Shown one piece after another: positions 52,818 to 54,343 of a stretch of DNA of 64,000 nt (its first letter is position 1; each line of letters starts with the position of its first letter). The position numbers and the translations under genes were made by a program. The notes beneath the pieces were generated by a model. That model did no database searches. It was given only the letters and a program-made list of their open reading frames with translations, and was not told the origin of the DNA. The stretch spans positions 2,821 through 66,820 of IMG/VR virus record IMGVR_UViG_3300028381_000129; one strand, given 5' to 3'. This stretch comes from a virus (taxonomy: Duplodnaviria; Caudoviricetes).

Positions 52818-53510
52818 TCATCCAGCCGCAACCAGTCGGAGGTGGGAGCTATTCTTGTCGACGGTGGGGAAGGGGGGAATCTCCACATCCCGCCCGTCGG
52901 TGTGATCGATGATCGCCCGGAGCAGCTTGTCGAGGAAGGGGTCTTCGAGACCAGCTACCGTACTCTCCGACCCCTTCCGTATTTCGTGGACGAGCCAGAT
53001 ACGCTCATCACGCTCAATCTCGTCGAGCTCATCCCAGTTGAGCACGGTTCGGTCGTTGAGCTCATTCCAGGTCTGGACCGATTGGTGGAACACCTTGGCG
53101 ATGTCCTCGTCGGTCTCCATCACCGTGGCTGGCTCATTTCCGGACAGCTGGGTCTTCAGCTCGTAGCCCATCAGCGGCCAGATCTGATCGATGGCATTCT
53201 TCCGGGCAATGGCCCTGCCGATCTCACGATCGAAGTTGGCAATGTCTACACAGGTCGAGATCCCATGGACGGTGAAGCCATTGGCGAGAACCAGGACACA
53301 GAAGGTAGTCCGCTTGAGGCTCTCCAAATCCAGATCAGTACCAGCCCCCTTGCCGATGCTCTCGTAGTTGCCTTCGACGATCGACCCCATCCTCCCCTCG
53401 TAGGCGGTGAAGGTGTGTTCGGCGACGATGTTGGCTTCGATGGCTGCCATGGTCACCCGGGGGTGCTTGCTCTGTCTGATCAGGTCCTGTTCGGTCGGGA
53501 AATTGCTCAT
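52818..53510 (-). CDS. Phage gp49/Sf6 gp66 family protein (putative anti-CBASS sponge) fused to a degenerate RyR-like helical domain
   Basis: PRVTMAAIEANI, TFCVLVLANGFTVHGISTCVDIANFDREIGRAIARKNAIDQIWPLMGYELK; C-terminal IAKVFHQ..WDEL..DKLLRAII. Confidence 0.75.
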   Translation of the reverse strand: MSNFPTEQDLIRQSKHPRVTMAAIEANIVAEHTFTAYEGRMGSIVEGNYESIGKGAGTDLDLESLKRTTFCVLVLANGFTVHGISTCVDIANFDREIGRAIARKNAIDQIWPLMGYELKTQLSGNEPATVMETDEDIAKVFHQSVQTWNELNDRTVLNWDELDEIERDERIWLVHEIRKGSESTVAGLEDPFLDKLLRAIIDHTDGRDVEIPPFPTVDKNSSHLRLVAAG

Positions 53511-53765
53511 GGGGTTGCTCCCTGCTGGATCTCGAAGCCCTCTAGACGCTACGGGCTCCCTAATGTATACGCTAATTCAGAGGCTTAGGAAAGGTTCCTA
53601 ATCCAATGTATGAAGTCCCTGAAAAATAGGGCAAAAGTCTTATATCTCCTTAGGAGGTATGGTGGGACGATCCTATTGTCGGAACCCCTGTTTCACAGGG
53701 ATCCCTAACCAGAAATTAACCAGGGACTCAACCAAACTTACTCAAGCTTGAGTTAAAGTTTGTTG

Positions 53766-53794
53766 TTGCTCACTCGAACTCTGTCACGTATCAG
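53766..53794 (+). promoter_or_regulatory. Candidate host sigma70 promoter
   Basis: TTGCTC-17 nt-TATCAG, preceded by the palindrome ACTCAAGCTTGAGT (53740-53753). Confidence 0.45.
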
Positions 53795-53800
53795 GATCAG

Positions 53801-54053
53801 GTGAGGCCGAGGCGGTCGCCACTACCCCAGTGACAGGTGGGGCTAATAACGGTCACAGTGAACAGGGACGATTTCCTCCTCTCGCAAGAGAGTCAGTCTC
53901 GTGGTTCACAGCTGTGCGGGGGCAGCTTCAACAAACCTCGACCAATGGGGGTCCACCCAGCTTCGCTGGGCTGTGACGATGAGGGGTTGAGACGGTCTGC
54001 TTATCCGCACGCAGGCAGACAGGTCTCCCCCTCATTACCCACCAGCTTCACCA
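53801..54053 (+). ncRNA. Candidate structured non-coding RNA, family unknown
   Basis: At least 8 mutually compatible helices, including a multiway junction and a GCAA tetraloop; no SD-led ORF. Confidence 0.55.
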
Positions 54054-54065
54054 CCGGAGACTGAC

Positions 54066-54281
54066 ATGAACTTCTCAGACGCACTGGTCCTGCTCAAGGC
54101 AGGCAACAAGGTCGCTCGCAGGGGCTGGAACGGGAAGGGGATGTGGCTGAACCTCCAGGTTCCCGATCCCCACAGCAAGATGACGCTTCCCTATATTTAT
54201 ATGAAGACGGCTGACGATCACCAGGTTCCCTGGCTCGCATCGCAGACGGATATCCTGGCTGAGGACTGGGAGCTGGTCTAA
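54066..54281 (+). CDS. tad2: DUF2829/Tad2-family protein (Thoeris anti-defence sponge)
   Basis: MNFSDAL..LKAGNKVARRGWNGKGMW...YIYMKTAD...PWLASQTDILAEDW; GGAG SD. Confidence 0.88.
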   Translation: MNFSDALVLLKAGNKVARRGWNGKGMWLNLQVPDPHSKMTLPYIYMKTADDHQVPWLASQTDILAEDWELV

Positions 54282-54310
54282 TCTCAGATCGCTTACGCTG
54301 AACCAAGGAA

Positions 54311-54343
54311 GAGGGGCTGGTGGCAACACTGGCCCTTTCTTTT
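54311..54343 (+). terminator. Intrinsic terminator after tad2
   Basis: GAGGGGCTGGTG-GCAA-CACTGGCCCTTT followed by CTTTT. Confidence 0.75.

Follow-up and report, generated by a model that had tools for sequence, protein, structure and literature searches.

Tad2 and Acb4 are known families of phage sponge proteins. The first is represented by SPO1 gp34.65 (PF11195/DUF2829; PDB 8SME-8SMG) and the second by SPO1 Acb4 (PDB 9E4W); as the initial annotation of the present locus had stated, the gp49/66 family (PF13876), with its namesakes N4 gp49 and Sf6 gene 66, includes Acb4 and is the Acb4 anti-CBASS sponge family (bioRxiv 10.1101/2024.12.30.630793). Fusions of Tad2 with Acb4 are frequent (10.1101/2025.07.12.664507), and in N4-like phages a variable island gathers Tad2, Acb4, Sequestin and RyR Tad genes, frequently as fusions (Fedorova et al., bioRxiv 10.64898/2026.06.04.730250). 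RyR Tad (Pectobacterium phage CB1 gp68) and RyDEP (PF02026) are cADPR sponges or glycosidases. In the locus described here, an acb4-family gene and a tad2 gene diverge on either side of a structured RNA. On balance, we favour the view that this is a right-end accessory island of an N4-like phage in three units, namely acb4, an RNA gene and an inserted tad2.

Layout of the locus and its place in the genome

The window (the whole stretch of 64,000 nt that was analysed, within a 66.8-kb record) comes from a phage of the N4-like type (Schitoviridae), with an N4-type terminase and relatives in N4 gene order. Its TerL is 75% identical to that of phage Zuri and 71% to N4 gp68, and a 3464-aa ORF, of vRNAP size, is a putative vRNAP gene. 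The order adaptor, TerL, gp69-like, Acb4(-RyR), long spacer, then tad2, another gene or nothing, and finally gp1 and gp2, is kept in relatives L006, L007, L009 and L017-L024. PF26891 and PF26984 were found in the relatives in the same order; the window's own ORFs at the gp1 and gp2 positions had no Pfam match and matched only phrog_5020 and phrog_4099. Acb4 and Tad2 each occur once in the 66.8-kb record, anywhere in which a profile search found no match to RyR or Sequestin.

The features of the locus are collected in Table 1. The two ORFs had been described as diverging across a 555-nt spacer, and coordinates, strands and spacer length (53511-54065, exactly 555 nt) are all correct; the terminator said to close the plus-strand unit is likewise present. 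A weak Rfam ctRNA match at this terminator reflects terminator shape only. On the other side, the G+C-rich hairpin after the acb4 stop stands between acb4 and the gp69-like and TerL genes.

Table 1. Features of the locus, in window coordinates (RNA sub-elements approximate)
Feature	Position	Strand	Remarks
G+C-rich strong hairpin, without U-tract	52745-52815	-	Just after acb4 stop; dG -45.4, z -3.9
acb4-family ORF	52818-53510	-	230 aa
Conserved block TATAC ... CTTAGGAAAG	53555-53612		Beside acb4 start; conserved across relatives
Small covarying hairpin, conserved ATTGTC.GAAC box before it	53686-53700	+	Compensatory stem changes (window, L006, L007, L009)
14-bp perfect palindrome ACTCAAGCTTGAGT	53740-53753		Sequence
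Promoter-like box TTGCTC (53766-53771), N17, TATCAG (53789-53794)	53766-53794	+	For RNA unit
Structured non-coding RNA	~53801-54049	+	~250 nt; covariation, strand bias
Pseudoknot core of RNA	53824-53858	+	Approximate
Long RNA hairpin, unpaired UUUCCUCC (53872-53879), GCAA-capped arm	~53859-53909	+	Approximate
RNA hairpin	53910-53928	+	Approximate
Terminator-type RNA hairpin	53981-54033	+	U-tract lost here; approximate
SD GGAGA of tad2	54056-54060		
tad2 ORF	54066-54281	+	71 aa
Intrinsic terminator, hairpin + UUUCUUUU	54310-54345	+	dG -25.8, z -3.5; closes plus unit
Terminal repeat (DTR) start, inferred	~54486 (region 54486-54600)	+	Alignment with N4 record junction and annotated Zuri DTR start
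N4-type P1 hairpin promoter region, putative	Between ~54486 and gp1 homologue, just upstream of gp1	+	N4 P1/P2 layout
gp1 homologue	54584-54928		

The cassette had also been placed at the genome end. It is not at the contig end, since it occupies 55.6-57.2 kb of the 66.8-kb record, but comparison with the homologous termini of N4 and Zuri would set the start of the terminal repeat at about 54486, which puts the cassette at the inferred extreme right end of the physical genome. In N4, DNA at the right end enters late, an unusual timing for counter-defence, and this counts against the explanation that we favour.

Among the smaller elements of the spacer, the proposed sigma70-like promoter is a weak one. 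The TTGCTC/TATCAG box agrees with the sigma-70 consensus at seven of 12 positions, has no final T in the -10 hexamer where one is usual, and fell below the threshold of a consensus scan, which returned no sigma-70 site in the spacer; nevertheless, its sequence and spacing are kept in nine of 10 relatives. The suggested drive by host RNA polymerase is plausible for the RNA unit, and only for that unit. Similarly, the reported palindrome exists but is within chance (two perfect 14-bp palindromes in the window against about four expected) and is unconserved among relatives. The conserved block beside the acb4 start may be a leftward late promoter or leader. N4-type hairpin promoters, with a 3-nt loop and shared flanks, were also sought in the spacer and rejected, as the TTC-loop hairpins at 53686, 53956 and 54221 have no common motif in relatives; a P1 just upstream of gp1 is preferred instead.

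The two sponge-family proteins

Profile searches confirmed both family assignments. PF11195 matches residues 1-71 of the 71-aa protein over profile positions 1-73 of 73 (E 5.5e-28; 97.7 bits against a cut-off of 25), and PDB chains of Tad2 and AcrIIA7 match it at E values of about 1e-13. Like SPO1 Tad2, which has 89 aa, this is a small stand-alone phage protein. The gcADPR contacts of SPO1 Tad2 (W25, N26, I63, T65, D67, H71, W73, S76, T78 and D79; 10.1101/2023.05.01.538930) were mapped onto it by phmmer alignment to 8SME, and eight of the ten are kept (W21=W25, N22=N26, T48=T65, D50=D67, W56=W73, S59=S76, T61=T78 and D62=D79), the two exceptions being I63, here M, and H71, here V. About 13 residues are missing from the beta2-beta3 loop, which in SPO1 Tad2 carries helix alpha-2 and contributes to the dimer interface. 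The protein most likely sponges the Thoeris signals 3'cADPR and 2'cADPR (gcADPR). Its gene is carried by three of eight close relatives, this phage counted, and sits between the RNA and an AT-rich box near the terminal repeat; judged from these sequences, tad2 is a lineage-variable insertion.

PF13876 matches residues 19-122 of the 230-aa protein (E 9.8e-27; 93.7 bits against a gathering cut-off of 27). The AF2 model of the protein is predicted to have the alpha-beta-beta-beta-alpha fold of Acb4, with 9E4W as its top structural match (VIA Z 9.4, rmsd 3.2, 76 residues aligned; Foldseek probability 1.0), and phmmer aligned the two sequences at E 2.6e-4. Ten residues of SPO1 Acb4 that contact 3'3'-cGAMP were compared (K36, F48, E49, V56, Y57, F62, N63, I66, T70 and K81). 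Three are identical (F48, F62 and I66), two or three are changed conservatively (K36 to R, V56 to C and N63 to D, the last a backbone contact), and the remainder are changed non-conservatively (E49 to T, Y57 to V, T70 to I and K81 to P). The 230-aa protein is probably a tetrameric sponge for CBASS-type cyclic dinucleotides. An IMG/VR pattern search with this protein gave no confirmed relative.

Although it has the Acb4 fold in common with the SPO1 protein, the window protein differs in carrying a 108-aa C-terminal extension. According to its alignment with relatives (A1), this C-terminal half descends from an RyR-type cADPR-binding domain whose binding unit has been lost. Relatives P0002-P0024 are Acb4 fusions of about 300 aa with a bona fide RyR repeat, the domain of RyR Tad and RyDEP, whereas the window protein has a 41-aa deletion. 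The deleted core, SHDxW...GWxYG...KTHPCLVPF, holds the H/W/H ligand residues that bind cADPR; the window protein aligns to the helices that flank this core, and only the D of the last helix is left. Residues ~128-207 form a three-helix remnant of the domain, from which the ligand-binding unit is absent. The A1 family profile matched RyR chains only at profile positions 222-271, where the window protein has a gap. PF02026 gave no match in the 230-aa protein even at E 10, and the C-terminal half had none in Pfam or in a PDB sequence search. Nor does any RyR chain stand out among the structural matches to this half (3NRT is a weak match with Z 5.0, at rank 47 among unrelated helical ones).

Could both proteins have ceased to be sponges in this phage, the Acb4-like protein being a decaying fusion and the short Tad2 unable to assemble? 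The deleted RyR unit, the replaced Acb4 contacts (E49, Y57, T70 and K81) and the shortened Tad2 loop with helix alpha-2 are in keeping with such a loss. However, neither ORF is disrupted, the Pfam scores of both exceed the cut-offs by far, and the Tad2 contacts are largely kept. Tad2 forms of 71 aa are found in other phages, with up to 68% identity, and Acb4 forms without RyR recur among several relatives (P0006, P0008, P0014, P0016 and P0017). Furthermore, all eight Acb4 homologues tested in the Acb4 paper bound cGAMP despite their divergence. We consider a loss of function in both proteins unlikely.

The structured RNA

The large folded element that had been seen in the spacer is real. The spacer folds better than its shuffles on both strands (z about -3.9), and in an alignment of 10 related phages (A4) compensatory double changes were found in 20 of 29 modelled pairs, as counted on MAFFT alignments. 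Paired cells make up 85.9% of A4 against 37-48% in slid controls, and none of 500 shuffles did as well. G.U pairs outnumber A.C by 25 to 10, which favours the plus strand, and UUCG and GCAA tetraloops sit on top of a covarying arm. A multiway junction closed by GTCACAG/CTGTGAC was rejected, as by eye it has no counterpart in relatives; the GTCAC covaries with an upstream GTGAC and is a pseudoknot stem. The long hairpin exposes a CCUCC motif. All relatives examined have the RNA, with or without tad2. Most of them also have a U-run after the terminator stem, which is absent here; it is weak in L014 and L017 too, and as both are without tad2, its loss is not tightly linked to that gene. Covariance models of Rfam 15 (E up to 1-5) found no match in the window element, in seven N4-like relatives or in seven distant copies including that of Sf6, and a blastn search of the spacer against 50,697 GenBank phage records returned matches in coding regions only, none of them to the RNA.

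The 5' half of the RNA comprises a pseudoknot (ACCCnAG-stem-GGUGGGGCnAAUAAC-stem), a hairpin with a GGUGA internal loop, the exposed CCUCC and a small hairpin with a GAAAGA or ACGAGA loop. At least 119 viral contigs carry its pseudoknot module; a strict core pattern gave only three IMG/VR contigs and one JGI metagenome contig, and stem positions were loosened for the wider set. Matches in genome contigs numbered 66 against about 70 expected by chance in 596 Gb, and were counted only when they shared stem complement and flanks, as in a multi-copy set in Endozoicomonas. Roughly one in five complete E. coli genomes also has the module, at a site that carries no annotation there. A protein-coding reading of the core was rejected, as the conserved ACCCnAG is put out of frame by the 6/7-nt variants in length. 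The succession UAAUAAC, stem and UUAGAGC resembles the tag end of tmRNA; ARAGORN found no tmRNA in 10 loci. It is possible, though less likely than not, that the 5' half represents a class of leader or regulatory RNA that is widespread in phages and has yet to be described, one that would respond to a ligand or protein and gate downstream accessory genes, including Sf6 gene 66 and, here, tad2.

The initial annotation had cast the RNA as a possible regulator of tad2 or a third effector, and a dedicated regulator, or an RNA decoy or sponge acting in counter-immunity, would agree with several observations. In each of the 12 N4-like loci examined the RNA has a sponge gene beside it, and in L015 it has both an Acb4 gene and an X-Tad2 fusion. 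Elsewhere, Sf6 gene 66 has the module some 115 nt upstream of it; in phage IME10 the module lies between tad2 and acb4, and one distant copy stands before an Acb2/Tad1-type gene. In addition, the Acb4 fold resembles that of dsRNA-binding domains. However, among the eight close N4-like relatives, this phage counted, five have the RNA but no tad2, and linkage within the N4-like clade is explained by shared descent. Nor is the module tied to sponge genes across phages, where a search for such co-occurrence had been proposed: the 95 distinct genes 3' of the module include four Acb4 and one Acb2/Tad1, alongside Gam, SSB, nucleases, Dam, CsrA, TerS, DUF2560 and others, and no sponge was found among 101 genes 5' of it. 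The module precedes many unrelated gene types and is thus not sponge-specific. A role as tad2 regulator or third effector is not supported by these data, and we regard it as improbable.

Finally, it is very improbable that the spacer is a DNA-level genome-end element (a packaging signal, replication origin or primer site) with RNA structure as a by-product of inverted repeats, for although it stands beside the terminase genes, at a distance of 450-700 nt from the inferred terminal repeat, has equal folding z-scores on both strands and is followed, 3' of the RNA, by a GATAGAC box and an AT-rich TATAATTTTTT box common even to N4 and Zuri, the excess of plus-strand G.U over A.C, the tetraloops on the covarying arm, the promoter-like box and terminator that bracket it in one orientation, and the occurrence of the same module away from the ends, at internal positions in unrelated phages and prophages of 25-60 kb, all argue for an RNA.

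Proposed organization and comparison with known systems

In the three-unit island that we favour, acb4 would be a separate leftward unit, bounded by the spacer and by the strong hairpin. The RNA gene would run rightward, starting from the conserved sigma-70-like box, and its product would fold into the 5' pseudoknot, the long CCUCC-exposing hairpin, more hairpins and a terminator-type stem. Directly 3' of this gene, tad2 would have been inserted, with its ribosome site about 20 nt past the RNA terminator stem without its U-run. As the U-tract has been lost here, tad2 is probably co-transcribed with the RNA, whose transcript it would prolong at the 3' end, and the strong terminator, about 140 nt short of the terminal repeat, would close the unit. 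The compact counter-immunity module of the initial annotation survives in part: the two families, the Tad2-Acb4 precedent and the retained Tad2 contacts speak for it, but tad2 is variable between lineages, which that annotation had missed along with the degenerate RyR-type half of the 230-aa protein, and the RNA is not specific to tad2.

Taken alone, the two proteins add little, as both belong to established families of sponges, which N4-like phages are known to hoard. What is new is a real, covarying RNA between sponge genes, whose 5' motif occurs in many unrelated phages and is absent from Rfam 15, together with naturally occurring Acb4-RyR fusions and their decay, for which the gain of tad2 may compensate. 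If the module is a regulatory RNA class, it would provide a way into the control of accessory and counter-defence genes by phages. A precedent is found in the N4-like phage LUZ7, in which late small RNAs from the orf69/orf70 intergenic region are abundant, terminated transcripts of less than 250 nt (PMC9163698); no sequence similarity to these was found, and the genomic position appears to differ. The placement of the sponge genes differs as well. In N4, gp49 sits between the SSB and vRNAP genes, and the hotspot of Fedorova et al. lies between the primase-polymerase and vRNAP genes, where this phage has no recognisable sponge gene; its island lies at the right end instead, past the terminase, and would constitute a second anti-signalling island in one N4-like clade.

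Two counter-defence genes on either side of a structured spacer

The initial annotation proposed a divergent anti-defence cassette in which two putative nucleotide sponges flank a structured RNA. The two open reading frames and their spacer are exactly as described there, and a clean terminator closes the plus unit (see table). Profile searches also placed both genes in the expected families, with PF13876 spanning residues 19-122 of the 230-aa protein (E 9.8e-27) and PF11195 (Tad2-like) the whole of the 71-aa protein (E 5.5e-28). PF13876, the gp49/66 family, is indeed that of the anti-CBASS sponge Acb4 (Chang et al., 10.1101/2024.12.30.630793), and Tad2-Acb4 fusions are frequent (Tal et al., 10.1101/2025.07.12.664507). 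Two smaller claims survive in part. The 14-bp palindrome is present but carries little weight, as about four of this kind are expected in the window, where there are two, and this one is unconserved in relatives. Similarly, a consensus scan of the spacer found no sigma-70 site, but a TTGCTC-17 nt-TATCAG box is kept in nine of ten relatives. The cassette does pair two genuine counter-defence genes; their families are known, and so is this kind of host phage.

Solved Tad2 and AcrIIA7 chains match the 71-aa protein at E about 1e-13, and eight of the ten contact residues listed for SPO1 Tad2 by Yirmiya et al. are identical (W21, N22, T48, D50, W56, S59, T61 and D62). The loop with helix alpha-2, part of the dimer interface in SPO1 Tad2, is about 13 residues shorter here. 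Other phages have comparable Tad2 forms of 71 aa, up to 68% identical to this one.

The N-terminal domain of the 230-aa protein has the Acb4 fold: SPO1 Acb4 (9E4W) matches it by sequence (E 2.6e-4) and is the top structural match in an AF2 model (mean pLDDT 75; Foldseek prob 1.0, VIA Z 9.4). Among the ten SPO1 Acb4 ligand-contact residues, three are identical, three conservative and four different. The C-terminal 108 residues gave no Pfam match and no PDB sequence match. PF13876 and PF02026, the RyR domain, occur together in the nearest homologues (P0002-P0024, about 296-301 aa). In the family alignment, a helical linker of ~40 aa is missing from the window protein, as is a 41-aa core bearing the H..W and H ligand residues, and the family profile matches ryanodine receptor chains solely at the segment deleted in the window protein. 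The 230-aa protein is therefore Acb4 joined to what is left of a RyR domain, and the RyR unit has also gone from five other relatives. RyR-domain phage proteins, namely RyR Tad (10.64898/2026.06.04.730250) and RyDEP (10.64898/2026.05.28.727677), have recently been shown to sponge or cleave cADPR Thoeris signals. Natural Acb4-RyR fusions were found at the right genome end of one N4-like phage clade, and go unmentioned in the searched passages of these two papers. The interval between acb4 and the gp69-like gene contains a hairpin of very high stability (dG -45) as well as a TATATATAAGG box, which suggests that acb4 is a transcription unit apart from the packaging genes.

Coordinates of the cassette and of related features in other genomes
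Feature	Genome or locus	Position	Strand	Remark
Hairpin and TATATATAAGG box	window	52704-52817		
acb4-family ORF	window	52818-53510	-	230 aa
Spacer	window	53511-54065		555 nt
14-bp palindrome	window	53740-53753		in spacer
TTGCTC; TATCAG	window	53766-53771; 53789-53794		
tad2 SD	window	54056-54060		
tad2 ORF	window	54066-54281	+	71 aa; ATG at 54066
Intrinsic terminator	window	54310-54345	+	dG -25.8, z -3.5
AT-rich box and repeat-start blocks	window	54395-54600		
75-aa ORF	L009	4195-4422	-	tad2 slot
Acb4 gene	L015	7843-8508	-	221 aa
X-Tad2 fusion	L015	8558-9091	-	177 aa; N-terminal half unknown
Acb4-RyR fusion	L007	5001-5903		
Acb4-RyR fusion	L009	5001-5879		
Acb4-RyR fusion	L017	3001-3900		
Acb4-RyR fusion	L020	1628-2518		
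Acb4-RyR fusion	L022	3001-3894		
Module copy, Sf6	L211	2479-2503		Sf6 record 37978-38002
Module copy, IME10	L212	2451-2475		IME10 record 31950-31974
Module copy	L210	3546-3570		entered alongside the Sf6, IME10 and E. coli copies
tRNA-Met and module	L053	394-467 and 477-503		
Six tRNAs and module	L036	609-1165 and 1634-1660		
Core copies, Endozoicomonas	L146, L147, L149, L151, L153, L157, L158, L160, L163, L172, L173, L180, L186, L187, L190, L193, L195, L203			

The spacer RNA and its 5' module

The flanking proteins are ~40-60% identical among relatives, and the spacer is nonetheless conserved in blocks. When a ten-sequence alignment was scored against the structure, pseudoknot included, 85.9% of cells were paired, compared with 37-48% when partners were slid, and 20 of 29 pairs had changed on both sides; none of 500 shuffles reached the observed values. 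The folded element that had been claimed is therefore real RNA structure. The excess of G.U over A.C on the plus strand (25 versus 10), and the UUCG or GCAA tetraloops capping one covarying arm, argue that it is read from that strand. The RNA is real, plus-stranded and conserved independently of tad2, which counts against a regulator dedicated to tad2. Its 5' boundary is marked by the conserved TTGCTC-17 nt-TATCAG box, and in most relatives it ends in a hairpin of terminator type, GGGGAGUUGAG...CUCCUCCCC, with a U-run behind it. The window has CAUUACCCACC in place of this U-run, and the tad2 SD and ATG follow immediately. The simplest reading is that transcription would read through from the RNA into tad2. 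A search of the element against Rfam 15, for the window and for seven relatives, matched no family.

The first ~110 nt of the N4-like RNA form a module that is shared far more widely, whereas the later hairpins and terminator are clade-specific. Across diverse copies, this module comprises the pseudoknot and a long hairpin, which has a 3' GGUGA internal loop and CCUCC or UCCUUU at its apex. It also contains a stretch of CCGAC and a small hairpin whose loop is GAAAGA or ACGAGA. A relaxed core pattern (ACCCNAG, 6-7 nt, GTGGGG, NNRATAAC, with stem positions loosened) was found in at least 119 IMG/VR contigs, against an estimated ~8 by chance, and in 66 contigs of GTDB genomes, which is near chance expectation. 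Among the matches listed, 93 of 117 viral ones have, directly after ATAAC, six bases of which five or more are complementary to the variable stem (~12% by chance). Pairing of the stem reaches 97% over 30 diverse copies, with double changes in 39 cells, a figure inflated by pre-selection of these copies for pairing. Rfam and ARAGORN did not recognise the distant copies. Candidate viral RNAs, 10,006 in number, have been catalogued (PMC10690425). Against Rfam and ARAGORN, the RNA is best taken as an unclassified phage RNA, one with a widespread 5' module.

The co-occurrence of this RNA with sponge genes, for which a search across phages had been proposed, is not general. Sf6 carries a copy of the module ~115 nt upstream of gene 66, the Acb4 family's Pfam namesake, and IME10 carries one flanked by tad2 and acb4. 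Of 5426 complete E. coli genomes, 1120 contain the Sf6-type copy, and the site bears no annotation there. Among the matches listed, however, just 4 of 95 distinct downstream ORFs are Acb4 and 1 is Acb2/Tad1, the others including DUF2560, Gam-like proteins, nucleases, SSB, CsrA, TerS, Dam and thymidylate synthase; helicases, Rha and KilA-N are represented in the 101 upstream ORFs, among the matches listed, but sponge genes are not. Our leading guess is that the RNA would serve accessory genes downstream of it as their leader or regulatory RNA, and that in the N4-like clade it may have turned into a terminated stand-alone transcript. In two distant phages the module sits directly beside tRNA genes, either 10 nt after a tRNA-Met or ahead of an array of six tRNAs. 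Endozoicomonas genomes hold many core copies with two or three recurring flank types, which suggests that the core there is part of a repeated or mobile element.

The right end of the genome and the tad2 slot

The source record (66.8 kb, of which the window is bases 2821-66820; CheckV completeness 91%) has three N4-like marks: a 3464-aa ORF, the size of a virion RNA polymerase; a large terminase that shares 75% identity with that of Pseudomonas phage Zuri and 71% with N4 gp68; and a gene order like that of N4. In GenBank, the record of N4 ends in ...CAGTATT and starts with TGGTGGGGCTACACC, and the annotated 457-bp terminal repeat of Zuri has an equivalent start. Both termini align to the window at TAGTGT | TGGTGTCCCTGACACC, which by homology would put the start of the terminal repeat at ~54486, and the cassette probably at the extreme right end of the genome. 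Downstream of this position are an N4-type P1 hairpin-promoter region and then a gp1 homologue. A right-end AT-rich box, TCATATTTTTTGCAG, and a repeat start with ACACC, CCCCCC and CCTACCCC blocks are conserved between the window phage, N4 and Zuri; with these, the termini of N4-like contigs are predictable from sequence.

Eight close N4-like relatives, the window phage included, share the order adaptor, TerL, gp69-like, Acb4(-RyR), a 555-930-nt non-coding spacer, gp1, small ORFs, gp2 and DUF4326, and they vary in the slot just after the spacer. This slot holds tad2 in the window phage and L006, which have lost the RyR unit, and in L022, where it is intact; it is empty in L007, L017 and L020 (RyR intact) and in L024 (RyR lost). 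In L009 (RyR intact) it holds an unknown ORF of 75 aa that matches nothing in Pfam and may be a further accessory or counter-defence gene. In relatives without tad2 the RNA runs straight into the AT-rich box, which in the window lies downstream of tad2; tad2 is therefore an insertion. The presence of tad2 in two of three RyR-less phages versus one of five RyR-intact phages hints, in very small numbers, at redundancy between two cADPR binders. In a more distant phage (L015, a 67-kb record), an Acb4 gene and an X-Tad2 fusion, both leftward, adjoin the same RNA core.

Acb4 and Tad2 are each present once in the whole 66.8-kb record, which gave no match to RyR or Sequestin. The published N4-like hotspot lies between the primase-polymerase and vRNAP genes (10.64898/2026.06.04.730250), and that region in this phage has no recognisable sponge gene. 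The cassette occupies the place of gp70-72 in N4 and of gp97-102 in Zuri, and this genomic position is new; the Acb4 protein of the cassette has a degenerate fusion partner.
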